A stretch of DNA of 26,774 bases from Acidobacteriota bacterium (GTDB lineage: Bacteria > Acidobacteriota > Vicinamibacteria > Vicinamibacterales > 2-12-FULL-66-21): the NCBI GenBank assembly GCA_013817065.1, contig JACDDJ010000001.1, forward strand, positions 1 through 26,774. Reading direction: 5' to 3'. Shown here piece by piece: positions 1 to 19,308 of this stretch. Position 1 is the first letter of the stretch. Each line of letters opens with the position of its first letter. Below the pieces are notes generated by a model that saw only the letters and a program-made list of their open reading frames with translations, did no database searches and was not told where the DNA came from. The position numbers and the translations under genes are program-made.

Positions 1-482
1 GCGCACGGCTTCCCCTTGCCGTTCAGCCGCACAGAAATTGTTCCGCTCGCCGGTGCGCCGCGAGTGAGTTGCTTACGATCCGACGAGCGCGTCAGACCGT
101 CGTTCGGGAAAATGCGCGGCTGCTGACCAGCGGCGATCAAGTGGATCTCCTCGACATCAGATCCTTCCTGGTATCTGATCGTGAAGCGCACTCCTCCTTT
201 GAGCTCACAGGTAGTGCTGCCCTGTGCGTTGAGCACCGTCGCATCAGCGTTGGTTACTGGCTTGCCGTTTTGCTGATCGGTCGTGAACGCGAGGCCGTCT
301 GAGTAGAGCCAGTTTGGCGGCGCAGGCTGGCCCCTTGCCGGCTCGTGCTCGAAGATGATGGAACCGTTGCGCACGATCATGGCGGGCCGATCCTCTCTCG
401 GAGTCTGAGCGAAGAGCCAGCCGATACCTCCCACAATCGTTGCCACGATCACCGCGATGCTTCCGAGTCTTGTCTTCCTCAC
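1..482 (-). CDS. Unknown-function N-terminally anchored/secreted protein (paralog B); 3' end runs off the window; not in the ORF track
   Basis: Manual translation from GTG at 482, with AAGGAG 6 nt upstream, is open to position 1: MRKTRLGSIAVIVATIVGGIGWLFAQTPREDRPAMIVRNGSIIFEHE...FTTDQQNGKPVT...TTCELK...NGKGKPC. It shares motifs with 552..1088. Confidence 0.85.
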   Translation of the reverse strand, partial: MRKTRLGSIAVIVATIVGGIGWLFAQTPREDRPAMIVRNGSIIFEHEPARGQPAPPNWLYSDGLAFTTDQQNGKPVTNADATVLNAQGSTTCELKGGVRFTIRYQEGSDVEEIHLIAAGQQPRIFPNDGLTRSSDRKQLTRGAPASGTISVRLNGKGKPC

Positions 483-551
483 CGCATTCTCCTTCACCAA
501 CTGAGGACCGGGGATTCAGCCCTGCACTCCCTCAACTCCGACACCGATACG

Positions 552-1088
552 TCAGTCGAAGAATTCGATCTTTGCTTTCGTGATGTTCGGGCAATCCTTT
601 GTTTCGCCGTCCACCTGCTTATAGCTGAGCGAGAAAACGTTTTCGGAGCCGTGCCGCTCGAGTGTCGGATAGTCCGATCCGTTGGAGTCCCTGAGACCGG
701 AGCCAATAACGAGCGGGATGGGCACCGACGCGTGCCCGTTCGCGGTGGTGATCTGAAAGGACTCGAGGATGGCTGTACCGAAGAAGCGGATTCTGATGTC
801 AGTAACTGGCCGCCGACGCACGTCGCAGCCATGCTGTGGTTTGACCGTGAGCACCATGTGGGTCGCTGGTCGGCCGTTGGGCTGATCCGGCGTCCATCGT
901 CCCTCCCGAACCTGTTTCCACGGTCGGCCCTTTTCGGAATTCTCATTGTCGCCACTCTGGAAGATCAACGATCCTCCCCTGACGATCATCGCGGGTCTGT
1001 CCTCGGCGAAGCGGGGCCTGCGGAAGTAACGGATCGCCGCAACCATCCCGATCCCTGCTGCGATCAGAATTCGTATTTTTGCTCTCAC
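552..1088 (-). CDS. Unknown-function N-terminally anchored/secreted protein (paralog A), 178 aa
   Basis: GTG start with AAGGAG overlapping the kinase stop codon. Basic-then-hydrophobic N-terminus (MRAKIRILIAAGIGMVAAI), EDRPAMIVRGGSLIF motif shared with 1..482, Cys88 and Cys166. Confidence 0.85.
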   Translation of the reverse strand: MRAKIRILIAAGIGMVAAIRYFRRPRFAEDRPAMIVRGGSLIFQSGDNENSEKGRPWKQVREGRWTPDQPNGRPATHMVLTVKPQHGCDVRRRPVTDIRIRFFGTAILESFQITTANGHASVPIPLVIGSGLRDSNGSDYPTLERHGSENVFSLSYKQVDGETKDCPNITKAKIEFFD

Positions 1089-1098
1089 ACCGTGCTCC

Positions 1099-4068
1099 TT
1101 ATCGCTGCTCGAGGCCGCTTCTCCTGGCGAGGTCCAGCAGGTCGGCCCGGTTTTCGTATGCCTCGACGCCCTCTTTCCACTGGGCGCGAAGCCGGCTTCG
1201 TGCCTGGCTGGCGCGTTGTGACAAGGCCGTGCTGCGCGCTGCGTCCTTGAGCCCGCGCGCCGCGGCCGCGCCTATCGCAGCCAGGCGCCACTCGAGTTCC
1301 GGCGAAGCACTGACCCTGGCGTCGCCGAGCGCCTCCTCCGCCCCCTTCAGGGCAGCCCGATGGTCCCCGGCCAGGAGATCCGCGTAGCCGACCCAGTAAC
1401 GCGGTTCTGTGGACACCGGTGTTGCCGCCTCTCGTGCGGTGCTCCACACGTCCTGCGAGATGGCGTTCCCGAGCCGAGCTTCCGCATATGTGAACAGCGC
1501 GATCGCCAGCTTGCCGGCCGAATCCTGTATGCCGCGCGGGTCACGGAAAAGCGGGGTGGTGATCCGCGCGCTCTCGCTGAAGTTGCCTTCGACTGCGTAC
1601 CGAAGCCCTTTCAAGGCGATCGCGCGCCGCTCGCGTTCTCGGAACGAGTCGATTCGCTTCGCGGCACCAGCGTGGAGTTCTGCGAGGAGAGGCTCAGACT
1701 CCGCGCCCCGACCCATCCGGATCAGCAGTTCGGCACGATTCGTGAGGTCATAGGGCAGCGCATCGAGCGTATTCTGCTGCCGATTCATTGCCTCGGTTCG
1801 AGCCCTGAGCCGTTCCGCGTGCGGCAGATTCCCCTCGGCGACGACGAAACCCGCAAGGTTTTCGAGTGCAAACGCCGCCGACGCGTCGTCGCCGACGCGC
1901 TCGGCAAGCTCGAGCCCTTCTTCCGAGATTTGGCGTCCTTCCGCGACGCGGCCAAGATCCTCGAGGGTCCTCGACATGATGAGAAGCAGTTGAAGTTCGT
2001 ACCGTCGATACTGTTTGTCCCTCAGAAAATCGAGAACCTGGGTTTCGATCTCCAGGGCCTTGGCGGGTTGTTCGAACTGTGTCAGGGCAGCTGACCTCTG
2101 CATCTTCGCACGCGCGACGATGCGCTGGGCGTTGCGCCGCGTGGCGAGGTCGATCGCCCGTTCGAAGTGGACGTCGATGGATCGAAGCACTGCCGCGTTC
2201 GGAGCTTCGTGAATGCGACTCCGGAAAAGTGCGCTTCCGAGGTCGATCAACCCTTCCGCTGCGACGGTATCGAGACCATGCTTGAGCGCCATCTGCACGG
2301 CGTCGTTCGCGATCTGCTGTGCCTTCACGTAGGCGCCCTCGGTAGCGGTCACGCTGCTCAATTCGAGTTGCGCTCGAATGAATTGCTCGCGATGATCGAG
2401 GGTCTCTGCGAGCGACGCGGCCTTCTCCAGGGCCTGCCGCGCGAGCTGTCTCTCACCGAGGCCATTCAAGTAGGTTCCACGGCGCAGCAGTGTCTCTGCG
2501 ATCCCCTCGGCATCGCTCGCTTGGCGATACAGCTCCTCCGCACGCGCGAAGGCTTTGAGGGCGTCCTCTTTTTCGCCGAGCTGTGACACGACCGTCGCGC
2601 GTCTCAGATGCGCTGCGGCATTCTCGGGGTCCAGTTGAATTGCCCGATCGAAGCTTGCCCGGGCCAGCACAGGCTGAACGGCGGCGTCCTGGGCACGACC
2701 GAGGTCCAGCCAAGCCCCAGAGTCACTCGGCTTCAGCTTCGTCAGGCGATCGTATTCGGCAACCACCTCGTCGACGCGCCGCAACATCAGCGCTCGAACG
2801 GCCCGCAGCCGCGCGCGGTCTTCGTCCGACAGCCGCCGCTCATCACTCGCCAGCGTGCCGACGGTATTGAGTGCGTCCTGCGCGCACTGGTGATCGTCCA
2901 GCTCGGTGCATGCTTCTGCCAGGCGCACGTAGGCGGGCACGTATCCAGGTGCGAGTTGGACGGCACTGCTCAGCGTCACTCGAGCGTTGTTGTAGGCTCC
3001 GTCCCTGATGAACGCCGTGCCGCGCTCATAGCGACGGTGCGCCTCGGGCGGCGCGACGAACTCCTCGGGCGCCCCGGTCCACTTCCACACGCCGATCGCA
3101 GCCATCACCGCGAGGACAGCGGCTCCGGCGGCGAGCATCGCCGCAAGGGAAAATCCTCGGCGGGGGAGTGTACCGACACCACTGATCGAACCCGACCCCG
3201 ACGATATCCGCAACGCGCCGAGCAGTTCCTCGGCGGATCGGAACCTGTCGTCGGGGTGCTTGGCGAGCAGCCGCCGGCACAGTTCATCGTGGTGTTCGTT
3301 CAGTTCACGCCGGATGGACGATACCGGCGGCGGATCGTGGCGCAGGATGCTGCTCGCCACTTCGGCTGAGGACGGACCGGTGAACGGCCGCTGCCCGGTC
3401 AGGCACTCGTGCAGCACCGTGCCGAGGGAGAACAGATCGCTGCGGGCATCGAGCGGACGCTGCGCCACCTGCTCCGGCGACATGTAAGGCAGGGTTCCGA
3501 CCACCGCGCCGGGCGTCGTCAGATTCGTGGTTGTTGAATCGGTGCCGGCATGGTCGCCGGCCAGGCTGTGGACCGCAAGACCGAAGTCGAGCAGCTTCGC
3601 CTGGTTGCTCGAAGTGAGAATGATGTTCTGCGGCTTGATGTCCCTGTGGATGATGTTGTGCGCGTGCGCGGCTTCGAGCGCGGCCGCGAGATCGGTGGCG
3701 ACCGACAGCGCCAGCCTCACATCGAGTGGACCGCTGCGAAGCTTGTCCGCAAGGGTCTGCCCCTCGATGTACTGCATGACGATGCAGGCGCGACCGTCAG
3801 GTTCGGCGATGACCTCGTGGACGCCGCAGATGTTGGGATGATCGAGCGCGGCCGCTGCGCGTGCTTCGCGGAGCAGCCGCCGGCGCGACGCGTCGTCGGC
3901 GGCCTTATCCGGTGCGATGAACTTGATGGCTACGGGGCGATCGAGCGCGAGATCCTGCGCGAGATAGACGCTTCCCATCCCGCCCGAGCCAATGAGGCGA
4001 TCGAGCCGGTAGTTCGAGAGCCGCGCACCGGGAGCGACTGGATCCATCGGGAGCCGAGCCGAACGCAT
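1099..4068 (-). CDS. Membrane Ser/Thr (Hanks-type) protein kinase with C-terminal TPR-like helical ectodomain
   Basis: GSGGMGSV, VAIK, HRDIKPQN, DFG, YMSPE and SDLFS motifs. One hydrophobic segment (LAAMLAAGAAVLAVMAAIGVW), then TPR-like repeats (e.g. AWLDLGRAQ...ARASFDRAIQLDPENAAAHL). The alternative start is ATG at 4047. Confidence 0.93.
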   Translation of the reverse strand: MRSARLPMDPVAPGARLSNYRLDRLIGSGGMGSVYLAQDLALDRPVAIKFIAPDKAADDASRRRLLREARAAAALDHPNICGVHEVIAEPDGRACIVMQYIEGQTLADKLRSGPLDVRLALSVATDLAAALEAAHAHNIIHRDIKPQNIILTSSNQAKLLDFGLAVHSLAGDHAGTDSTTTNLTTPGAVVGTLPYMSPEQVAQRPLDARSDLFSLGTVLHECLTGQRPFTGPSSAEVASSILRHDPPPVSSIRRELNEHHDELCRRLLAKHPDDRFRSAEELLGALRISSGSGSISGVGTLPRRGFSLAAMLAAGAAVLAVMAAIGVWKWTGAPEEFVAPPEAHRRYERGTAFIRDGAYNNARVTLSSAVQLAPGYVPAYVRLAEACTELDDHQCAQDALNTVGTLASDERRLSDEDRARLRAVRALMLRRVDEVVAEYDRLTKLKPSDSGAWLDLGRAQDAAVQPVLARASFDRAIQLDPENAAAHLRRATVVSQLGEKEDALKAFARAEELYRQASDAEGIAETLLRRGTYLNGLGERQLARQALEKAASLAETLDHREQFIRAQLELSSVTATEGAYVKAQQIANDAVQMALKHGLDTVAAEGLIDLGSALFRSRIHEAPNAAVLRSIDVHFERAIDLATRRNAQRIVARAKMQRSAALTQFEQPAKALEIETQVLDFLRDKQYRRYELQLLLIMSRTLEDLGRVAEGRQISEEGLELAERVGDDASAAFALENLAGFVVAEGNLPHAERLRARTEAMNRQQNTLDALPYDLTNRAELLIRMGRGAESEPLLAELHAGAAKRIDSFRERERRAIALKGLRYAVEGNFSESARITTPLFRDPRGIQDSAGKLAIALFTYAEARLGNAISQDVWSTAREAATPVSTEPRYWVGYADLLAGDHRAALKGAEEALGDARVSASPELEWRLAAIGAAAARGLKDAARSTALSQRASQARSRLRAQWKEGVEAYENRADLLDLARRSGLEQR

Positions 4069-4114: not shown

Positions 4115-4858
4115 TCACCGCCGCGCCGGCGGACGGCTGCCGATGGCGAAAATCCGCACCAGCACCGCGCCGGCGATGAAGCCGCCGATGTGCGCCATGA
4201 AGGCGACGCCGCCGCCCGACTGTGGTCCCTGGCCGAGCACACCGTAGGCGCTGATCAACTGCAGGATGAACCACAGGCCGACGGCCACGTAGCCGGGGAC
4301 CTGCGTGATCATGCGCAGCAGCAGCACTCGGACCCGCCGGTGCGGGTGCATCACGAGGTAGGCGCCCATCACGGCCGAGATGGCGCCCGAGGCACCCAGG
4401 CTCGGGATGAACGGGTTGTCGCCAAAGACAAAGGTCGAGACGACGTGGGCGATCGACGCAAGCACACCGGTCGCGAGGTAGAAGGCGGTGTAGCGGCCGT
4501 GCCCGAGGTCGTCCTCGATGTTGTCGCCGAAGATCCACAGGAACAACATGTTGCCGAGCAGGTGCATCAGGCTGCCGTGCATGAACATCGACACCAGCAG
4601 GGTGAGGTAGACGGAACCGGGCGTCTCCTGCAGCGGGATGACGGCCGACTGGTCGCCGATCTCGACCCGGACCGGTCGAGCGACGTCTTCGCCGGTTCGG
4701 ATCTCCTGGGGAACCGTCGAGAAGGAATACGTGAACCGCTCGTTGTTGCCCATGCCCTGGAAGAGCACGAACACCAGCACGTTCATCGCAATCAGCAGAT
4801 ACGTGACGTACGGCGTGCGCAGCCGTCCAGTGTTGTCGTCGCCGATCGGGAATACCAT
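4115..4858 (-). CDS. Rhomboid family intramembrane serine protease
   Basis: HLLGNMLFLWIFG, catalytic Ser in GASGAIS, catalytic His in AHIGGF, multiple TM segments. Confidence 0.95.
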   Translation of the reverse strand: MVFPIGDDNTGRLRTPYVTYLLIAMNVLVFVLFQGMGNNERFTYSFSTVPQEIRTGEDVARPVRVEIGDQSAVIPLQETPGSVYLTLLVSMFMHGSLMHLLGNMLFLWIFGDNIEDDLGHGRYTAFYLATGVLASIAHVVSTFVFGDNPFIPSLGASGAISAVMGAYLVMHPHRRVRVLLLRMITQVPGYVAVGLWFILQLISAYGVLGQGPQSGGGVAFMAHIGGFIAGAVLVRIFAIGSRPPARR

Positions 4859-4898: not shown

Positions 4899-5189
4899 TT
4901 ACTCGGCGACGTCTTTTTCGCGCGGCCGCCAGAGGATCAGGACCTTGCCAACCCGATGCACGGCTGCCGCGGCGGTGCGGGCGCAGATCTCGTCGCCGAT
5001 CGCGATCCGGTCCGCCCGGTCGGCAGCATTGACCTTGACCTTGATCAGTTCGTGCGCCGTCAGCGCGCGATCGACTTCGGCGATCAGCGTGTCGGTGATG
5101 CCCGCATTGCCAGCCTGCACCACTGGCTCGAGTGCGTGCGCGCGGGCTTTGAGGTGAGCACGTTCCCGGGCAGTCAATGGCGTGGCCAT
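4899..5189 (-). CDS. yhbY: YhbY family (CRM domain) RNA-binding / ribosome assembly protein
   Basis: 96 aa with LTxRERxHLKARAHALEPVV, ALTAHELIKVK and VGKVLILWR signatures. Confidence 0.93.
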   Translation of the reverse strand: MATPLTARERAHLKARAHALEPVVQAGNAGITDTLIAEVDRALTAHELIKVKVNAADRADRIAIGDEICARTAAAAVHRVGKVLILWRPREKDVAE

Positions 5190-5194
5190 GCGCC

Positions 5195-5223
5195 ATTGTA
5201 GTCTTCGAGGCGCCCGGTATCAT
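5195..5223. promoter_or_regulatory. Back-to-back -10 hexamers for yhbY (TACAAT, - strand, 5195-5200) and selO (TATCAT, + strand, 5218-5223)
   Basis: Each hexamer lies 5-6 nt before its start codon in a 40-nt divergent spacer. Confidence 0.55.
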
Positions 5224-5229
5224 GGAGGC

Positions 5230-6675
5230 ATGCCAGGCTGGCGCCTCGAACATACCTACGCGGACCTTCCCCAACTCTTCTATGCCGACGCCAGGCCGGC
5301 GCCGGTTCGAGCGCCGCGTCTCGTCGCATGCAACAAACAGCTCGCGGTAACGCTCGGCCTGGAGCCGGAGACGCTGGACGGCCCGCAGGGCGCCGAGATC
5401 TTCGCCGGCAACGCCCTGCCCGAGGGCGCCAGACCGATTGCCCAGGCGTACGCCGGCCACCAGTTCGGCGGCTTCACCGCTCTCGGTGACGGCCGCGCCA
5501 TTTTGCTCGGCGAGCAGGTGACGCCGTCAGGGGACCGCTTCGACATCCAGTTGAAAGGGGCAGGGCAGACGCGCTACTCGCGACGCGGGGACGGGCGCGC
5601 CGCGCTCGGGCCGATGCTGCGCGAATACATCATCAGCGAGGCGATGCACGCGCTTGGCATCCCGACCACCCGCAGTCTCGCGGTCGTGATGACCGGCGAG
5701 CCGGTGTATCGCGAGTCGGAGCTCGAAGGCGCCGTCCTCACGAGGGTGGCCTCGAGCCATATTCGGGTAGGCACGATGCAGTGGGCGGCCGCGCACGACG
5801 ATCAGCCGGCACTGCGCGCCCTCGCTGACTACACCCGGGCGCGGCATTATCCGGAACTTGCCGACGCCGCGGAGCCGCACCTCGCCCTGCTCGACGCGAT
5901 CATCGAACGGCAGGCGCGCCTGATCGTCCAGTGGCAGCTGGTCGGCTTCATCCACGGCGTGATGAACACCGACAACATGGCGCTGTCGGGCGAAACCATC
6001 GACTACGGACCCTGCGCGTTCATGGACGCGTACGATCCTGAAACCGTGTTCAGCTCGATCGACCACGGCGGCCGATACGCTTACGGCAATCAGCCGCCAG
6101 TCGCGCAGTGGAACCTCGCGCGCCTCGCGGAAGCGATGTTGCCGCTGCTGAACGCTGATCTCAACCGTGCCGTCGAGCTGGCGACCGCATCACTCGAGCG
6201 GTTTCCGGTACTGTTCGAGAGCGGATGGCTCGCCGGAATGCGCTCCAAGCTCGGGCTGTTCACCGAAGAGCCGGAAGACAAGGCGCTCGTCGACGATCTG
6301 CTCCTCTGGATGGAGCGAACATCCGCCGACTTCACCAACACCTTTCGGAATCTGACGATGGCAGATCGCTCGGAGGATGCGCGGAGGTTAGACGCGCAGT
6401 TCGATGCCTGGCACAGCCGGCTGGACGCGCGGCGCGCACGGCAAACGCAGTCGCGCGCTGAGGCGGAGGCGCTGATGCGAGCCCACAATCCCGCCTTCAT
6501 CCCACGCAATCACAAGGTGGAGGAGGCGCTGCAAGCCGCCAGTGGAAACGACGACTTCACCGTGATGCAGCGGTTGCTGGACGTCCTCGCAACACCCTAC
6601 GATCACGACCGCGACCTGCCGGCTTTCAGCGCGCCGGGCGACTCCAGGACTTACCGCACGTTCTGCGGGACCTGA
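5230..6675 (+). CDS. selO: Protein adenylyltransferase SelO (YdiU/UPF0061 pseudokinase AMPylase)
   Basis: YAGHQFG, LGDGRA, QLKGAGxTxYSRxGDGRA, HGVMNTDN, IDYGP and C-terminal TFCGT. ATG 5230 preceded by GGAGG is preferred over the track start 5182. Confidence 0.95.
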   Translation: MPGWRLEHTYADLPQLFYADARPAPVRAPRLVACNKQLAVTLGLEPETLDGPQGAEIFAGNALPEGARPIAQAYAGHQFGGFTALGDGRAILLGEQVTPSGDRFDIQLKGAGQTRYSRRGDGRAALGPMLREYIISEAMHALGIPTTRSLAVVMTGEPVYRESELEGAVLTRVASSHIRVGTMQWAAAHDDQPALRALADYTRARHYPELADAAEPHLALLDAIIERQARLIVQWQLVGFIHGVMNTDNMALSGETIDYGPCAFMDAYDPETVFSSIDHGGRYAYGNQPPVAQWNLARLAEAMLPLLNADLNRAVELATASLERFPVLFESGWLAGMRSKLGLFTEEPEDKALVDDLLLWMERTSADFTNTFRNLTMADRSEDARRLDAQFDAWHSRLDARRARQTQSRAEAEALMRAHNPAFIPRNHKVEEALQAASGNDDFTVMQRLLDVLATPYDHDRDLPAFSAPGDSRTYRTFCGT

Positions 6676-7664: not shown

Positions 7665-9128
7665 CTACTTGTCCGCGAGCGGCTTGCCGTCGGCGTCGAA
7701 TACTTCGAGCGTCCCCTTCTTCGCGAGCGCCGCTGAAATGGCGGGCGCGTCACCGACGGCAACGATGTGCAGACGCGCGGGATCCCAGTATTTGCGTGTC
7801 GCGGCCTGTGCCTGCGCCGCCGTGACGGCGGCGATCCGGGCTGGGTAGGTATCCCAGGAGTCCGCCGGCAAGCCATGGGTCCAGCTCTGGACGTAGTAGT
7901 TGAGGATGGCGGCGGGGTTCTCCAGTGAGAGCGCGAACGACGCCTGGAGCGCTCGCTTCGCATCCTCGAACTCGCTTGCGGGCACGGGCTTGTCGCGCAT
8001 CTCGGCGATCTCCGCGAGCAGGTCGGTGAGCGCGGCTTCTGTCACCGCCGTCCTGACGGACGTCGATGCCGACCAGTCGCCGCGATACTGCTGCGCGGAG
8101 AAGTTGCTGCCAATCCCGTAGGTGTAGCCCTTCTCTTCGCGCAGATGCCGGAACAGCCGCCCCATTGTCCCGCCGAGGACGCGGTTGGCGACGGTCAGCG
8201 CTTCGTAGTCGGGATCGAGGCGCGTCATGGACGGTCCCCCGACGCGCAGCGAGGTCTGGACTGAGCCGGGCCGAGCGATCAGTGTCACCTTCGGCGCCGC
8301 TGGCGCGGGTGGCGCAGTCACGGTGGGCTTCGGGACGCCCGCCTTCTTCCATCCGCCAAGCTGTGCCTCGACCTTCTTCCGCGCTTCGGCGAGCGAGATG
8401 TCCCCGGCAAAGGCGATCAGCGCGTGATCGGGGACGTAGTGGGTGCGGTGAAAGTCCACCATGGCGTCGCGCGTGATCGCGTCGAGCCCTGCCGCCGTGA
8501 CGGTGGTCCGTCCTGCCGGATGATCCCCGTAGAGGATCTTGTTGTAGCGCTCGGTCGAGAGGAAGCCCGGGTTCGCGCGCTGCTGCACCAGTCCGCTCCT
8601 GGCCCGGGCCTTGGCCCGCTCCCATTCGGCAGGGAACGTCGGGTTCATCAGGACGTCCGCCGCGATCTCGAACACCTTGTCGAAGTTCTCGGTCAAGCTG
8701 CTGCCCGACACGGTGGCATTCTGGCTGGAGAGTCCGGCTCCCACTCCGACATTCGCCGCCAACGTTTCCAGTTCCTGCGCCATCTGCAGGGTGTTCCGCG
8801 TTTCGTTCCTTCGCGCATCATCTGCGCCGTGTACTGAGCGAGCCCGATCTTGTCGGCCGGATCGTAGTAGCCACCCGCGCCCGGGATGATCAGCTGAAAG
8901 CTGGATCTGCGGAAGGCTGCGATCCTCGACCACCATGATCTGAAGCCCGTTGGGCAAGGTGGCGGTCTGTGGTTTCGGGAGCTTGACCTTCAGGATCTCG
9001 CTGGAGATCGGGGCCTTGCCCTTCAGCACCATGCCGGACGTCGTTGGACCTTGTGGCGCCTGGGCCGCCAGTGTTGCGGTCACCAGGATCGGCATGACGC
9101 CGGCGAGCATCTTCTGTTGGAGATTCAT
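7665..9128 (-). CDS. M16 (pitrilysin) peptidase family, non-catalytic partner subunit, with two compensating frameshifts
   Basis: Signal peptide, [18 protein letters not shown]...[15 protein letters not shown]. Between about 8804 and 8896 the family-like sequence ([30 protein letters not shown]) is in another frame. Confidence 0.88.
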
Positions 9129-10009
9129 TACTCCACCCCCTTCGCCGCCGCGGCCTTTGGCGTCGTCACGATCACGGTGCGGTTGGTCGTGACCAGATAT
9201 TTCTTCGCGACGCGCTGGACGTCCGCCGCGGTGACTTTCGCGATCGATGCGGCGCGCGTGTTGATGCGGCCCGGATCGGCGAACGCGAGCGCATTCTCGG
9301 AGAGCTGGATGGCGCGGTTCAGCGTGCTCCCGAGTCCGCCGATGAAATTCGCTCGAGCGGAGTTGCGCGCCTTCTGCAGTTCCCAGTCGGCGATCGGCGC
9401 AGACTGGATTTTCGCGATCTCTTCTTCGATGGCGGCCTCGAGCTCCGCGGGCGTCTTGCCCGGCAGCGGCGTGCCGCCGAACTGGAAGAGGCCGGGGCCG
9501 CGCGACAGGGAAGCGAACCCGCTCACGCCGCTCGACAGCTGTTTCTGCCGGACGATCGACTCGTAGAGCCGCGCACTCCGGCCTCCCGACAGGATCGACG
9601 CCAGCACCGACAGCGCATCCGCGTCAGGCGAACCGGCGGGCGGGATCTTGTAAGCCATGTCCAGTCGCGGCAGGCGTGCCAGCGGATCCTCGATCGTTGC
9701 CCGCCGTTCTTCCGTCTGTGGCGGCTCGGTCATATCGACCGGCGGCGGCTGCGGCTGTGAAGGGATGGCGCCGAAGTACTTGCGGACCTTCTCGAGCGTG
9801 GTCTTGGTGTCGACGTCACCGACGATCGCGACGACCGCGTTGTTCGGCGCGTAGTAGGTCTTGAAAAACGCCGCCACATCGTCCACCGTTGCGGCGCTGA
9901 GGTCCTCCATCGACCCGATCACGCTGTGCTCGTAGGCGAAGTTGTCGTAGGCGAGCTCGTCGAGTGCGAGCGAGGTTTTGCCGTACGGCTGGTTGTCGAC
10001 GCCGAGCCG
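9128..10009 (-). pseudogene. M16 peptidase catalytic-type subunit missing its N-terminal region (signal peptide and HxxEH)
   Basis: Homology begins abruptly at RLGVDNQPYG and continues YEHSVIGSMEDL, FFKTYYAPNNA, GGRSARLY. The stop overlaps the next start (TAATG). Confidence 0.8.
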
Positions 10010-10027
10010 GGGCGCGTGCGTTCCGGC

Positions 10028-10057
10028 AGTATAGCGCCGCAGCCGCCAGCACATAAT
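10028..10057. promoter_or_regulatory. Divergent -10 hexamers: TATACT (- strand, 10028-10033) for the M16 operon and CATAAT (+ strand, 10052-10057) for dinB
   Basis: Same geometry as 5195-5223. CATAAT is 5 nt before the DinB ATG. Confidence 0.5.
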
Positions 10058-10579: not shown

Positions 10580-13237
10580 CTACGCCTCCTTCAATGCGTC
10601 GGTTGGCTGGATGCGCAGCGCTCGTCGTGCCGGCTCGACACACGCCAGCAACCCGACGACGAGCATCACGGCGGACGTCGCTGCGAGCACGCTCGACACT
10701 GTCGCCAGATCGACCTCGGTCGAGAGGGTCACGATGGTAATCAGCACGGCGTTCCCGGCCGCGATGCCGCTGCCGACCAGGATGAGCGCGCGCGCAAAGA
10801 TGCCGCGCAACAGCCGCGCCGGTGACGCGCCGAGAGCGGCGCGAAGGCCGATCTCGCGGGTCCGCCGCGCGACACTCACGGACATCAGCGAGAAGATCCC
10901 GGCCGCGGACAGGAAGAGGCCAAGGACGACGACAGTGGTGATCGCACCTGCCGCGACCATCGCCGGAACGTCGACGCGCCACGCGAGATCTTCGACAGAA
11001 CGCAGGTCATCCAGCCGCAGTCCGGGATCGACCGCGGCGGCGATGACCCTGAGGCGCGGCGCCAGCGCCGCCGGATCCCCGGCGCTCCGCACGCCCATGA
11101 CCAGCGGATACGCGGTCGCTGCCGCCACCGGTCGAAACAGATACGGCGCCTCACCAAGGTCGGTCGGGGTCATTCCAATGTCGCGGACGACACCGACGAT
11201 CTCGAGCCAGGGCTGGGGGTTGGCCGGATCGGAGCTCGCGTAGCGGACGCGGCGGCCAACAGGCGTTCCACCCTGGACGTAGCGACGCGCGAAGGCTTCG
11301 TTGACCATCACCGTGCGCGCGTCGGTGACGCGATCACCGTCGTGGAAGGTGCGTCCGCCAACGAGCGGAATCTCGAACGCTTCGAAGAAGCCGGGGCCTA
11401 CCGAATTGGTCCAGAGACTGGCGATCTCCAGCACCTCCGCACCCGGCGCCGCCTCGAACTCCGCCCTTCGCACCGCCGCTCCCATGCCCGGCATGCGATC
11501 ACCGAAAGTAATCGCTACGACATCTGGTTCCTCCGCAACGCGGCGCGCGAACTCGCTGTAGGTCTGCTCGAGTCGCTTCGCGAAGACGTCCGGAGCCTCG
11601 TCGCCTGCGGCGCTGGCCTCGCGATCGAGTCCGACCCTGGCGGCCAGGTATCGCTCGCCCGGGAACTGCTCGCGGATCCTGCGGTCGCGCAGCGCCTCGC
11701 TCGTGATCCCCAGTGCGGGGGGAATGCAGATGACGGTCAACGCCACCTGCACGATCATCACCGTCGTCCAGCCCCAGCCGAAACGCAGCGTCGAGCCACC
11801 TGCCCCGAGGTTACGCAGTTGCGCCTGCACCCCTGTACCGGTCACCTTCAGCGCGGGGAGTACGCCGAGCAGCGCGGCGCCCGCGACAGTGAGGAGACCA
11901 GCGTAGAGGACGGTCGTGAACTTCAGCCCCGGGTTCACCCAGAAGGGCATCGCACCCCCCTGGCCGGCGTAATACGCCGTCATGCCCCACTTGACGGCGA
12001 AGTTTGCGCCGACGAGTCCGACGACCGCGGCGATTGCGGCAAGCACCAGTGCTTCGACGAAGAGTTGCGAGATGATCCGGCCGCGGCTGGCACCAAGCGC
12101 GTAGCGCATCGAGATCTCGGCGTCCCGCGTCGCGGTGCGCGCGTAAATCAGCGTGCCGACGTTCATGCACGCGACGACGAGAACAAGCAGGATCGGGAGG
12201 TGAGTGACGGCGAGCTCCAGCCAGGTCTTGTCGCCAGGAGATTCGCCTCCGTAGGCGAGCACACGTGGGCGAAGGTGCTCGTGCGTGCGTGGACTGGCCT
12301 GCGCGGTTCGCTCGACGAGGGCCGTGACCTCGGTGTTGGCCTGCGCCTGCGTGGCGCCCGGCGCGAGACGCCCGAACACCCGGATGGCAACGCCTTCGAG
12401 CGGCGCGTAGCCGGACGGCTGAAGCGGCAGCGGAATCCAGAAACGATGGTTGATCGGGAACGTGAAGCCTTCCGGCATCACGCCGACGACCGTCGTCGTC
12501 GTCCGCCCCAGCTGGATGGTCTCGCCGATCGCGTCCGTGCGTCCGCCGAAACGCTGTCGCCACAGGTCGTAGCCGAGCACCGCGACCGGCTCAGCGCCCG
12601 GTTGTTCATCCGCCTCGAGGAGTGGCCGGCCGACCAGCGGCGCGACTCGCACCAGCCGGAACGCTGACGCGGTGATCTCCGCACCGGTGACGGGATCCGC
12701 CTGGGCGTCGCCGAGGACGAGGTTTCGCTCGATCGAGCGGTACGCACCGAGCTCCTCGATCGACTGGACGTCGCGGCGCCAGGTGAGAAAGTCGTGCAGC
12801 AGCCGCCGTTCGTCTTCACTCGCGACCGCGTTCCGCATCTCGACCTCGACGATGCGGTGGCCTTCGGGGAGGGGAAGATTGGGGCGGAGAAAGTCTCGCG
12901 TGAGGTCGTACCAGCCGGCGCCGATGCCGATGGCGATGGCGAGGGCGAGCCCGCCGGCGAGCGTCAGGCCTGGATACTTCACGAGCATCCGCCAGCCGAG
13001 TTTGTAATCCTGCACGAGACTGCTCCTCTTGTTGGTGCGAAACCGGTCGGCCCGGGTGCGCGCGATCGCGGCGACCATGTCCAGCGTGTCGATTGCGCTC
13101 AGCATGCGAGCCGCCGCGGCGCCGTGGCGCTGGAGGCGCCGGTGCCTGGACTCCTCGAGGTCGCCGAGGACGTCTTCGGCCTCGCCACGTGGGGCGGCGA
13201 TTCGCACCAGCACGCGAGCCCAACCAGGCGCTCTCAC
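10580..13237 (-). CDS. Orphan duplicated MacB/FtsX-type ABC permease (ADOP-like)
   Basis: Two MacB periplasmic plus FtsX halves (RDAEISMRYALGASRGRII; RTREIGLRAALGAS), C-terminal PARRALRIQPTDALKEA, no ATPase gene adjacent. The GTG start overlaps the PadR stop (GTGA). Confidence 0.92.
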   Translation of the reverse strand: MRAPGWARVLVRIAAPRGEAEDVLGDLEESRHRRLQRHGAAAARMLSAIDTLDMVAAIARTRADRFRTNKRSSLVQDYKLGWRMLVKYPGLTLAGGLALAIAIGIGAGWYDLTRDFLRPNLPLPEGHRIVEVEMRNAVASEDERRLLHDFLTWRRDVQSIEELGAYRSIERNLVLGDAQADPVTGAEITASAFRLVRVAPLVGRPLLEADEQPGAEPVAVLGYDLWRQRFGGRTDAIGETIQLGRTTTTVVGVMPEGFTFPINHRFWIPLPLQPSGYAPLEGVAIRVFGRLAPGATQAQANTEVTALVERTAQASPRTHEHLRPRVLAYGGESPGDKTWLELAVTHLPILLVLVVACMNVGTLIYARTATRDAEISMRYALGASRGRIISQLFVEALVLAAIAAVVGLVGANFAVKWGMTAYYAGQGGAMPFWVNPGLKFTTVLYAGLLTVAGAALLGVLPALKVTGTGVQAQLRNLGAGGSTLRFGWGWTTVMIVQVALTVICIPPALGITSEALRDRRIREQFPGERYLAARVGLDREASAAGDEAPDVFAKRLEQTYSEFARRVAEEPDVVAITFGDRMPGMGAAVRRAEFEAAPGAEVLEIASLWTNSVGPGFFEAFEIPLVGGRTFHDGDRVTDARTVMVNEAFARRYVQGGTPVGRRVRYASSDPANPQPWLEIVGVVRDIGMTPTDLGEAPYLFRPVAAATAYPLVMGVRSAGDPAALAPRLRVIAAAVDPGLRLDDLRSVEDLAWRVDVPAMVAAGAITTVVVLGLFLSAAGIFSLMSVSVARRTREIGLRAALGASPARLLRGIFARALILVGSGIAAGNAVLITIVTLSTEVDLATVSSVLAATSAVMLVVGLLACVEPARRALRIQPTDALKEA

Positions 13238-14270: not shown

Positions 14271-15275
14271 CTACTGCAGCGTGAAGTTAACCGTGACGGT
14301 TATGATCACCGGCACCGGCGCGCCGTTGAGCACCGTCGGCTGGAACCGCCATTGCTTGACCGCGTCCAGTGCCGCCTGGTCCAGCATCGGGATCGATCGC
14401 AGGACCCTGGCGTCGGAGACGTTCCCTTCAGCGTCGATCATTACTTCAATGATGACCATCCCGGATACGCGGGCGTCCTGCGCCTCCTGCGGATAGACCG
14501 GGCTTACGTGCTGGACTTTCGCCGGTGTCTTGATGATGCTACCGACGCGAACCGGCGCACCCGGCGCAGGTAGCGGTGGCGGGACCGGCGCTCCGGTCTG
14601 CATGGGGGTCCCCTGGCTCGGACGCAACTGCATGGCCTGCGTGCGCCAGGCGTCCGCTTCGGCGATCAAGGCGTCACGCCGCGCCGGATCGGGTTCGTGC
14701 TGTGCCTTCATGCGGAGCAGGATGTTCTTGTAGGTCATGGCATCCGCGAAGTCGGCCTTCTGCGCCAGGGCCCGGTCCGTCGCCGCGAGACCGCCATCAA
14801 TGTAGGTGAGCTTCTCGGCCGGCGTGAGTGAGTGGTCCTTGAACGCCTTTTCCCAGTAGTAGGTGGCGACCAGATGGTGGCCCAGCGGATCGATTGGATT
14901 CAGGTCGGCGGCGGCCTGCAGTGCTTCGATCGACTTGTCGAATTGCGCCTGGCGCGTGTAGAAGCTGGCCGCGGCAGTCAGCACCCGCCGGTCGGGACCG
15001 ACGGCAGCCGCCTGTGCCGCCTTGAACGTCCTCTCGACCTCGTCGACGGCCCCACGCGCTTCCTGGAGCGTCGCGAGCTCGAGCCAGTTCGCGACGTTGG
15101 CCGGATCGCTGACCGTAGCCGCCTTGAGTTCCACCTCCCGTTGAGTTTCCGGTCGCGCCACCTCGGTGCGTGGATCGCGGGGTTGCTGCGCGGCCAGCAG
15201 CCCGGGGGCAACGAAGAGTGCAAGTGCGAAGGCGGTGGATCGGACGACTGCTGCGGTGTCTGGTGACGACATCAC
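14271..15275 (-). CDS. TPR-containing protein with C-terminal TonB domain
   Basis: Signal peptide, TPR-like helices, Pro-rich linker (PVPPPLPAPGAP), TonB-C (PVYPQEA...SGMVIIEVMIDAEGNV...LDQAALDAVKQWRFQP); GAGGAGG RBS. Confidence 0.9.
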   Translation of the reverse strand: MMSSPDTAAVVRSTAFALALFVAPGLLAAQQPRDPRTEVARPETQREVELKAATVSDPANVANWLELATLQEARGAVDEVERTFKAAQAAAVGPDRRVLTAAASFYTRQAQFDKSIEALQAAADLNPIDPLGHHLVATYYWEKAFKDHSLTPAEKLTYIDGGLAATDRALAQKADFADAMTYKNILLRMKAQHEPDPARRDALIAEADAWRTQAMQLRPSQGTPMQTGAPVPPPLPAPGAPVRVGSIIKTPAKVQHVSPVYPQEAQDARVSGMVIIEVMIDAEGNVSDARVLRSIPMLDQAALDAVKQWRFQPTVLNGAPVPVIITVTVNFTLQ

Positions 15276-16570: not shown

Positions 16571-19258
16571 TTACCGGAAGTTCGAGATCAGCACAGCGTC
16601 GCGCAATGCCGTGCCGCGCGCGAGCAGCACGGTGCCGTCGGCTGCCAGTGCGAATCGGGCGATCCCGAGATCGGAGAAGTTCGTCACCTTTTCGCGCGTG
16701 CCGCCCATGGCCGGGTGTTTCCAGATGTTCAGGCGTTCGGAAGTGGTGAAGAGCAGCGACTGGCCGTCGGGCGTCCAGGCGATGCTGCCGCTGCCGCTGG
16801 CCGGCATGAAGTCGGTGATGGTGTTGACCGGTTTGCCGGTGCCCGCGTCGAGGACGCCGAGGGTCAGTGCCGACTGCAGGTCCGCGCGGTAAAGGCCGGC
16901 CAGCAGCTTACCGTCGGGTGACGGCGCGGCGCGTTCGAAGAGGCGGGCGACGAGGGCCGGCTCGCCGCCGTCCGTCGACAGCCGGAAGGTCGCCGGTGTG
17001 CCCGCCTTTGAGGAGGTGAAATACAGTGAGCGTCCGTCGGGTGCCATTGCCAATGACGTCGGATCGTTCACCTCGGCAAGGCGACGTGGATCCGACCCGT
17101 CGCTGCGGGCGCGCCAGATGCCAATCGAGCCCTCGCGCTCAGCGCTGTAGAAGACAGATCGACCGTCCGGCGAGACGGCGATCCCGCTTGGCCGCACATC
17201 CGCAACCACCTCGCGCTGATCGGTCCCGTCGACGTTCATCGTCCAGATCTGCAGCTTCGAGCCCACCAGCTTCAGATAAAACATCCGCGGCTCGGCCGGG
17301 CTCCACGCGACCCCGTTCGCCCCGGCCGTCCGTCCTTCCGGCAAGAGCGTCTCCTCGCCTCCGCTCAACGGCATCACGCTCAGGCGCGACGTGGCTTCGA
17401 AGGTGACGCTGAGGAGGTGCTTGCCATCCGCGGTCACGCTGGCGTTGCGGTACTCGAGCATGTCGGTGGTGATCCGCTGCAACTCCCCCGACGGGAAGGG
17501 CTGGAGATACAGTTGCCCGCCGTTTCCGCTCGAGTACATTCCCGGCACCCGCCCGGAAACGACGATCCCGGAACCGTCCGGCATCCATCGCAGGAACGTG
17601 GCATTGGCGAAGACGGCTGGAAAGGCGGTCTCGGACCGATCGTTGACATCGAACAACACCAGGCCGGCAGTGCGAGTCTGCGAGTTGCGGATTGTCGCGG
17701 CGATTCGGCGACCATCCGGTGACCACGACGGTGCGGCGTAGAACGCCGGGGCGAAGAACTCGGGATCCCGGCGCGTGACGAACGCGGTCGGGGACTCACC
17801 GCCCGCTCCCGCTATCACGATCGAGCTGGACCCGTCGGCGGACTCGACCCGGTAATAGGCGATCCTCGAGCCGTCGGGGGAGACCGTGACGGCGCTGTCA
17901 ATGCCCGTCAGCAAGGCTCTCGCGGACCCGCCGAGGGTTGGAATGTTGAAGAGCACGCCGCGCGGCTCGGCGGGGACCTTGACCGCGTAGTAGATGGACG
18001 TCGCATCGGCAGAGAACGTAATCCCCCAGAACCCGCCGTCGGTCTGGGCCAGTTGAAGTGGTCTGCCGCCTCTCGTTTGTCTGAGCCAGAGACCCTGACG
18101 TCCCGCTGCCGACTCGACATACGCGACGTACTTTCCGTCGCCAGAGATGACCGCGTCGATGACGTTGCCGCTGTTGGTGATTCGTTCGAAGGTAAGTTGC
18201 GCGGCTGAGGACGCCGGGTCCCGCGGGCGCCACATCCATGCGGCAGCCGCGATGATGGCGACGACGAGGACGGCAGCCATTCCAATGAGAAGCGCCCGCG
18301 AGCGCGGTGCCGCTGCGGGAATTGCCGCGGTCGCCATCGCGGGCGCCGACCCGGAATCCAGCTCGCGGCGCAGGTCGCGCAGATCGAGCGCGACCTCCTT
18401 CATCGACTGGTAGCGCTCGTCCGGGCTCTTGGCCAGGCACTTACGGACGATCCGCTGCAACTCGGTTGGGGCGGCCGGCGCGAGCTGGACGATCGGCGAG
18501 GGCTGCACATAAATGATCTTGTGCAGGGTGTCGACGGCCGAGGCTCCGCTGAACGGACGCGCCCCGGTCGTCGCCTCGTACAGGATGCAGCCGAAGGAGA
18601 AGATGTCGGACCGGTGGTCGACGGCCATGCCCTGCGCCTGCTCGGGTGACATGTATCCAACGGTGCCCATGACCACGCCGGGCGCGGTTCCGGATCCGCC
18701 CGGGATCTGCGTGACCGTCGCATCGCCCGCGGCCTGCGCCGCGACCGGAGGGTCCTTGCGAAGTTTCGCCAGCCCGAAATCGAGGACCTTCGCGTAGCCG
18801 TCCCCGACCATCAGATTTTCCGGCTTCAGATCGCGATGGACGATGCCGGCGGCGTGAGCGGCGGCGAGCGCGTCGGCCGCCTGGGCCAGGTAATCGAGCG
18901 TGCGCTTCAGATCCAGGCGACGGCTGTCGAACAGCTGGCGCAACGTCTCGCCCTGTACCAGCTCCATGGCGATGAAATGGACCTTGTGGCCGACGCCGTC
19001 CGGGACCGCTTCGCCGATTTCGTAAATGGAGACCAGATGCGGATGGTTGAGGGCGGAGGCGGTGCGCGCTTCCTGCTTGAAACGCGACAGGCGGTCCGCG
19101 TCGCCGACCAGCGCTTCGGGCAGGACCTTCAGTGCCACCGGGCGCTGCAGCTCCAGGTCTTCAGCCCGGTAGACCTCGCCCATGCCGCCGCGTCCGAGCA
19201 ACGGACCGACGCGGTAGCGGCCGATTGTCTTGCCTGAAAGCCAGGCTGAGGCGCTCAT
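16571..19258 (-). CDS. Membrane Ser/Thr protein kinase with TolB-like (PD40) beta-propeller ectodomain
   Basis: GRGGMGEV, VALK, HRDLKPEN, DFG, YMSPE; TM segment LLIGMAAVLVVAIIAAAAWMW; repeated SPDG/WSPDG motifs. ATG 19258 is preferred over 19294. Confidence 0.93.
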   Translation of the reverse strand: MSASAWLSGKTIGRYRVGPLLGRGGMGEVYRAEDLELQRPVALKVLPEALVGDADRLSRFKQEARTASALNHPHLVSIYEIGEAVPDGVGHKVHFIAMELVQGETLRQLFDSRRLDLKRTLDYLAQAADALAAAHAAGIVHRDLKPENLMVGDGYAKVLDFGLAKLRKDPPVAAQAAGDATVTQIPGGSGTAPGVVMGTVGYMSPEQAQGMAVDHRSDIFSFGCILYEATTGARPFSGASAVDTLHKIIYVQPSPIVQLAPAAPTELQRIVRKCLAKSPDERYQSMKEVALDLRDLRRELDSGSAPAMATAAIPAAAPRSRALLIGMAAVLVVAIIAAAAWMWRPRDPASSAAQLTFERITNSGNVIDAVISGDGKYVAYVESAAGRQGLWLRQTRGGRPLQLAQTDGGFWGITFSADATSIYYAVKVPAEPRGVLFNIPTLGGSARALLTGIDSAVTVSPDGSRIAYYRVESADGSSSIVIAGAGGESPTAFVTRRDPEFFAPAFYAAPSWSPDGRRIAATIRNSQTRTAGLVLFDVNDRSETAFPAVFANATFLRWMPDGSGIVVSGRVPGMYSSGNGGQLYLQPFPSGELQRITTDMLEYRNASVTADGKHLLSVTFEATSRLSVMPLSGGEETLLPEGRTAGANGVAWSPAEPRMFYLKLVGSKLQIWTMNVDGTDQREVVADVRPSGIAVSPDGRSVFYSAEREGSIGIWRARSDGSDPRRLAEVNDPTSLAMAPDGRSLYFTSSKAGTPATFRLSTDGGEPALVARLFERAAPSPDGKLLAGLYRADLQSALTLGVLDAGTGKPVNTITDFMPASGSGSIAWTPDGQSLLFTTSERLNIWKHPAMGGTREKVTNFSDLGIARFALAADGTVLLARGTALRDAVLISNFR

Positions 19259-19269
19259 CGTAAGGAGGG

Positions 19270-19308
19270 ATCTTACCGCGACTGCCGGTGGCAATATCCG
19301 GGTAACAT
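19270..19308. promoter_or_regulatory. Divergent -10 hexamers TAAGAT (- strand, 19270-19275) and TAACAT (+ strand, 19303-19308)
   Basis: TAACAT is 6 nt before ATG 19315, which has no SD. TAAGAT is 11 nt before ATG 19258. Confidence 0.45.

Follow-up and report, generated by a model that had tools for sequence, protein, structure and literature searches.

Soil bacteria have hundreds of Hanks-type receptor kinases, and to our knowledge neither the signal nor the mechanism of the outer domain is known for the majority of them. Kinases with a tetratricopeptide repeat (TPR) ectodomain are among the commonest architectures in Acidobacteriota, and TPR arrays are protein- and peptide-binding scaffolds. 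One described system that joins a TPR-bearing kinase to envelope proteins is PknG-GlnH-GlnX, a nutrient-sensing module of Mycobacterium and Corynebacterium, in which the kinase, PknG, is soluble and cytoplasmic and contacts the four-helix membrane protein GlnX through its TPR on the inner side of the membrane, while the solute-binding lipoprotein GlnH acts as the sensor (PMC6069109; PMC8546545). Here we describe a locus of an Acidobacteriota bacterium. The stretch analysed (the window) is the entire 26,774-bp contig JACDDJ010000001.1 from an 85%-complete metagenome-assembled genome (MAG). At its left end, a TPR receptor kinase gene and two small genes, A and B, lie head to tail, all on the minus strand. 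Judged by sequence, A and B belong to an uncharacterised group of proteins that falls into no recognised sequence family, and the position behind a clade of TPR-ectodomain Ser/Thr kinases is near-obligate for this group. We consider it probable, if well short of secure, that A and B work with the TPR receptor kinase as accessory or co-sensor subunits that face the periplasm. The features of the locus are as follows.

552..1088, minus strand: gene A, an open reading frame (ORF) of 178 residues with a GTG start, coding for an N-terminal membrane helix and a predicted all-beta ectodomain (residues 30-178), with Cys88 and Cys166
3..482, minus strand: gene B, an open-ended ORF with 160 residues visible, a paralogue of A, with Cys92 and Cys160
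1099..4068, minus strand: TPR kinase gene, 989 residues, upstream of A and co-oriented, with matches to Pfam Pkinase and TPR families
1095..1100, minus strand: Shine-Dalgarno sequence AAGGAG of A, 6 nt before the GTG at 1088 and overlapping the kinase stop codon TAA at 1099-1101, as read from the sequence
489..494, minus strand: Shine-Dalgarno sequence AAGGAG of B, 6 nt before the GTG at 482, as read from the sequence
1023..1085, minus strand: membrane-anchor helix of A, residues 2-22, from the AlphaFold2 (AF2) helix and hydropathy
408..467, minus strand: membrane-anchor segment of B, residues 6-25 counted from GTG 482, with a mean hydropathy of 2.14 over 19 residues and a net charge of +4 in the N-terminal flank
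960..1004, minus strand: family signature of A, EDRPAMIVRGGSLIF, residues 29-43, which holds the family-invariant R31, P32, V36 and G39 and the nearly invariant S40 (alignment A1)
351..395, minus strand: family signature of B, EDRPAMIVRNGSIIF, residues 30-44

The linkage of A and B to the kinase was examined by tblastn of each recovered locus, with the kinase part and the TPR part of the window kinase as separate queries. The 19 non-redundant loci reached through the small proteins come from metagenomes and GTDB genomes of Vicinamibacterales, other Acidobacteriota and Gemmatimonadaceae, which are also the named sources of the family, and in 18 of them the family gene or genes lie directly downstream of a kinase orthologue on the same strand (the window, L003/4, L005-8, L009, L010, L011/12, L013=L027, L015=L026, L016, L017, L018, L019, L020, L021, L024, L025, L028 and L029). 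Where the whole kinase gene is present, the kinase domain is 62-69% identical to that of the window and the TPR part 43-47% identical over ~650 residues; loci cut short upstream gave partial TPR matches at 30-38% identity. The kinase side gives the same picture: of three orthologues, picked only for lying on contigs of 0.5-1.9 Mb, every one is immediately followed by a gene of the family (E 3e-34, 1.3e-24 and 3.2e-10). A fourth kinase orthologue is followed by ORFs of 189 and 185 residues, and family member P0183 is also 185 residues long and comes from a contig of equal length. The linkage persists at ~25-30% identity between the small proteins, with different flanking genes at every locus, and the kinase and family genes overlap in L009 and L031. 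The other neighbours vary by locus (DNA ligase, glycosyltransferases, an ECF sigma factor, a sulfatase, succinate dehydrogenase), so that what is conserved is the pair of kinase and partner.

The kinase itself has the features of the Hanks type. Its Pkinase domain (PF00069) spans residues 20-281 (E 1.3e-46) with the motifs VAIK46, HRD141 and DFG161, and the catalytic motifs are invariant in 59 orthologues. The clade to which it belongs comprises more than 144 clusters at E ≤ 1e-20. Only one hydrophobic helix is found, at ~306-328, between the kinase part and a C-terminal TPR-rich ectodomain of ~650 residues, and this single helix would place the TPR array outside the cell, on the same side as the beta-domains of A and B. 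The TPR kinase gene is immediately preceded by a co-oriented rhomboid protease gene (4115..4858, minus strand); the latter is not kept beside the kinase in the other loci examined.

The kinase and A are separated by 10 nt, and the kinase stop codon overlaps the Shine-Dalgarno sequence of A. B has no entry in an ordinary ORF list because it is open-ended. That B is incomplete at the window edge had been recognised from the start, and we add the correction that the cut end is the C-terminus. Judged from full-length orthologues in L003 and L004, the contig end has removed ~17 residues, which form the last beta-strand, after the second Cys. Since the window is the entire contig, this assembly holds no further sequence from which B could be completed. 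B most likely starts at GTG 482 rather than at the upstream TTG 500 chosen by the ORF lister, since AAGGAG, 6 nt and GTG precede A (1088) and B (482) alike. With these two starts, the cysteine positions first given for A (C88 and C166) and B (C92 and C160) are exact. In the closest relatives, a conserved 138-residue protein with a signal peptide follows B (L003 2330..2746; L004 2836..3252), and a convergent ATP-dependent DNA ligase follows that protein, a region that lies beyond the contig end of the window.

The original prediction held that A and B are tandem paralogues, and this is confirmed. BLASTP aligns the two at E 7e-11, with 34% identity over 94 residues that cover the anchor, the EDRPAMIVR[G/N]GS motif, the W...[W/F]TxDQxNG[R/K]P segment and the first Cys; the longer form of the motif, EDRPAMIVR[G/N]GS[L/I]IF, is likewise found in both proteins, as had been claimed. 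A profile of 35 relatives, from which the A clade and the B clade had been removed, matches A over residues 7-175 (E 1.5e-40), a full-length B orthologue over residues 9-172 (E 2e-22) and the B of the window over residues 5-156 (E 1.9e-19). Since these matches are near full length, the homology spans the whole protein, beyond the 15-residue motif at which the likeness might have ended, and the predicted models of A and of a B orthologue share the same strand order. Sequence comparison thus confirms A and B as true paralogues. Orthologues of A share 62-75% identity.

The family to which they belong consists almost entirely of proteins of 165-220 residues from metagenomes and MAGs, called "hypothetical protein" where named. 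An exhaustive phmmer search of 1.8 billion cluster representatives gave 54 matches at E ≤ 1e-3, and a profile search of a 5.8-billion set gave 73 at E ≤ 1e-5. Neither A nor B has a match in Pfam-A or NCBIfam at E < 0.1, no Pfam match is common to more than one of 45 family members, the precomputed Pfam field is blank ("-") for all 73 profile matches, and a PDB profile search and an ESM Atlas feature search returned nothing for the family. The earlier statement that no family could be recognised therefore held in Pfam, NCBIfam and PDB sequence searches.

Both A and B have a single N-terminal hydrophobic anchor, an acidic stretch and the strand motif RP[PA][IM][IL]V[RK][GND]GS. In the family consensus, a short net-positive tail is followed by a hydrophobic segment of ~20 residues, an acidic run and RPPIIV[RK]GGSLIF-x-SGD; then come GK-x-W ... 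W-x-PDH-x-x-GK, the first Cys and several variable strands, and finally a conserved Pro, the second Cys and the last strand. The family signature, carried by A and B, has the consensus [DE][DE]RPP-IIV-[RK]GGS, and the four invariant residues and nearly invariant Ser noted for A hold across 45 sequences. The body of the domain is variable, with a mean column identity of 27% in alignment A1, so that the conserved N-terminal strand and variable body first described for the pair are also seen in the family alignment. Two longer proteins, P0023 (339 residues) and P0182 (341 residues), consist of two family domains fused in tandem by nature. Both halves keep a hydrophobic anchor and an RPPIIV motif of their own, a topology that is puzzling if both helices are real. 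Giant cadherin-like/RTX repeat proteins (P0011, P0013, P0018, P0031, P0042 and P0050) also score against A, at E 1e-5 to 4e-12. We excluded them from the family, as each aligns in 4-12 short weak stretches that are probably repeat-summed or generic beta-sandwich noise; the beta-domain may still be remotely related to Ig/cadherin-like repeats of bacteria.

Structure prediction agrees with the claim that the proteins are beta-rich. The AF2 model of A (alignment A1) has a predicted local distance difference test (pLDDT) score of 91.6 and a predicted TM-score (pTM) of 0.82, and that of the ectodomain of a B orthologue (alignment A3) has a pLDDT of 91.6 and a pTM of 0.84. Both predict an all-beta domain of ~150 residues with 13 beta-strands in the same order; the two models were built from largely the same alignment, and their agreement is supportive rather than independent evidence. 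Foldseek found no relative in the PDB, with a best E of 0.07 and TM-scores of 0.16-0.30. Against AFDB clusters, the top hit for both models was A0A838MX31 (probability 0.99 and 1.00), with TM-scores by query of 0.40 and 0.53 and nearly the whole ectodomain covered. This uncharacterised 230-residue "Lipoprotein" is a lipid-anchored envelope protein, as are the lipobox-bearing family members described below, but its identity to the modelled proteins is 11-12% and E only 1e-2 to 4e-3. The fold hits of the two models, though weak, are concordant. With some 100 sequence clusters, models of high confidence and a fold for which we recognise no relative, the family deserves a name and a structure.

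In one alternative, A and B would act in the envelope independently of the kinase, perhaps as a beta-sandwich of the AMIN type that binds the cell wall or has a structural role. They would share a transcript with the kinase, or be under its control, and would not join it in a complex. AMIN domains of PilQ and AmiC are among the nearest known comparisons; no member of alignment A1 matches the AMIN domain PF11741 at E ≤ 0.1. We regard this alternative as unlikely.

Several lines of evidence suggest that the A/B family is a membrane-tethered domain that faces the periplasm. Over 45 members, the N-terminal flank of the hydrophobic segment has a net charge of +1.9 and the C-terminal flank one of -1.0, and the bias favours an N-in/C-out orientation in 37 of the 45. 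The two cysteines, one in mid-domain and one before the last strand, occur together in 38 of 45 sequences and are both missing in 7, with no sequence carrying a single one, although the sequences are related and the count overstates the number of independent events. Such a both-or-neither pattern is what a structural disulfide would produce; a disulfide is thus probable, which in turn points to an oxidising compartment. In three relatives (P0036, P0041 and P0229), classical lipoprotein signal peptides with a lipobox, ending in LAAC or LAGC, replace the anchor; A and B have no lipobox of the form [LVI][ASTVI][GAS]C, there being no Cys in their N-terminal regions, and show no obvious signal cleavage site. 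The periplasm-facing assignment follows from the charge bias, the Cys co-occurrence and the lipobox-bearing relatives taken together. Of the earlier description of the proteins as exported and disulfide-bonded, an extracytoplasmic location with a probable disulfide is retained on the same three grounds, and free secretion is given up because the proteins are membrane-anchored.

The cytoplasmic side of the same topology invites another explanation, that the kinase has in A and B its membrane substrates or its partners in a phospho-relay, with the kinase phosphorylating Thr or Ser of their cytoplasmic tails and the outer beta-domain acting as effector. The gene linkage to the kinase fits this equally, Thr makes up 13.4% of the residues of cytoplasmic tails vs 7.8% of ectodomains, and at least one Thr occurs in 54 of 93 tails; the tail of B has Thr4. 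The tail of A (MRAKIR), however, has neither Ser nor Thr, tails average only 8 residues, alignment A1 has no conserved phospho-acceptor position, and conservation lies in the outer domain of the protein. A Thr or Ser close to the initiator Met is moreover common anyway, and we hold a substrate role to be quite improbable.

Copy number and phylogeny bear on the role first suggested for the pair, as diversified secreted ligands, adhesins or immunity-like proteins under diversifying selection. Two family genes are found in 6 non-redundant modules and one detectable copy in the rest. In a maximum-likelihood tree, A and B fall into different deep clades: A groups, with good support, in a clade of 11 members that includes single-copy modules, and B falls outside this clade, whereas the pair in L010 are sister sequences. 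There has thus been more than one duplication, and that behind the A/B pair is old. The genome G023 has two separate kinase-partner modules on different contigs (L016 and L024), so the module itself can be duplicated. The family is patchily spread, with a gene in 9 of 36 genomes of the same GTDB family and in 0 of the 24 searched from other families of the order. The search for further copies that had been proposed yielded two family matches in the source genome, with 0-2 in relatives and 1-2 per module: the family is low in copy and forms no expanded, diversifying array. A variable domain body and local tandem duplication, as in L010, are what diversifying ligands, adhesins or immunity-like proteins might show. 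Set against this are the membrane anchoring without an obvious cleavage site, the low copy number, the kinase linkage, the separate deep clades of A and B in place of a recent diversifying array, and the lack of toxin, secretion-system or adhesin genes that recur near the loci examined. The suggestion is therefore unsupported, and we think it very improbable.

The reading we prefer, that A and B serve the TPR receptor kinase as accessory or co-sensor subunits, is drawn from the conserved, coupled gene order, the shared compartment and the capacity of TPR arrays to act as binding scaffolds. On this reading, A and B are paralogues that parted long ago within a family of small bitopic envelope proteins not described before. 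Each would begin with a short basic tail in the cytoplasm, cross the membrane by one helix and continue with an acidic juxtamembrane stretch, followed by the motif strand and a disulfide-stabilised all-beta domain of ~150 residues facing the periplasm. Their genes would share a transcript, and be coupled in translation, with the gene of the upstream membrane Ser/Thr kinase, whose 650-residue TPR domain would lie on the same outer side of the membrane as their beta-domains. Association with the kinase could occur via the membrane helices, via contacts between the beta-domain and the TPRs, or both, and A and B might then either bring a signal before the TPR sensor or determine how active the kinase is; they may activate it, inhibit it or give it ligand specificity. 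A complex prediction with the kinase ectodomain (residues 335-989, 59-row alignment) and the A ectodomain (residues 27-178, 45-row alignment) gave a score of 0.00; it covered ectodomains only and carries no weight either way. In one module (L011 3624..4980), a gene for an extracytoplasmic function (ECF) sigma factor (PF07638/PF04542) comes after the partner pair, and after it another Ser/Thr kinase gene begins, which may hint at an output pathway.

Some observations weigh against the co-sensor proposal. Binding between the kinase and A or B is something we infer. A has the basic stretch RYFRRPRF after its helix, so that its own charge bias is ambiguous and the A clade stands as an exception to the family trend. 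About two thirds of the modules have a single detectable copy, and the pair is therefore not required. One highly divergent member, from the genome G031 (G031:C3, L033 4354..4896), is not beside a kinase. The orphan member of G031 has the motif DEAPIRVRNGS and two Cys, and its gene sits between a sortilin/BNR gene and one for a MacB-type permease.

A bolder form of the proposal, which we offer tentatively as a possibility, is that the A/B family is a new fold and the obligate, separately encoded co-receptor of a large TPR-kinase clade of soil Acidobacteriota and Gemmatimonadota, with a beta-domain that docks on the TPR array outside the cell and determines what the kinase senses. If true, this would be a bacterial receptor/co-receptor arrangement not described for Hanks-type kinases; a literature search for TPR kinases of Acidobacteria brought up nothing on the module. 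A dedicated, co-inherited small partner also offers a concrete handle, a module of two or three proteins that can be expressed, pulled down and crystallised.

Elsewhere in the window, a gene for the protein adenylyltransferase SelO (5182..6675, plus strand) is divergent from the rhomboid gene and adjoins it. A second receptor-type Ser/Thr kinase of 907 residues (16571..19294, minus strand) has a C-terminal part that resembles a PD40/WD40 beta-propeller, and no family member with the EDRPP-IIVRGGS signature lies downstream of it. Genes at 7665..10054, 10580..13237 and 14271..15275, all on the minus strand, encode an M16-family peptidase pair, a MacB/FtsX-type permease and a protein with a TonB C-terminal domain. 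We see nothing that connects these ordinary envelope genes with A and B.

Among known systems, the PASTA-type receptor kinases PknB and PrkC (NCBIfam NF033483) have the same layout as the window kinase, a kinase domain, a transmembrane helix and an ectodomain. The match of the window kinase to NF033483 (E 1.8e-83) is confined to the catalytic part, and its score of 281 lies below the cut-off of 450. Unlike PknB and PrkC, it has no PASTA domains; a 650-residue TPR array takes their place, and separate partner genes are added. Another of the nearest known comparisons is the N-terminal beta-sandwich of PflA bound to the TPR protein PflB (PDB 9leq).

The closest described logic is that of PknG-GlnH-GlnX, where, as here, a TPR-bearing Ser/Thr kinase is encoded in an operon with small envelope proteins, and where those proteins supply extracytoplasmic sensing and the TPR is the coupling scaffold. 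The window departs from that type: its kinase has a transmembrane helix, and its operon has no gene for a protein with four such helices. Unlike PknG, the window kinase itself spans the membrane and would carry its TPR outside the cell, and unlike GlnH and GlnX, A and B each pass the membrane once, have a beta-fold without a match and show no similarity to a solute-binding-protein family. With these differences, the kinase-A/B module would belong to a known kind, that of a receptor kinase plus an accessory envelope protein.
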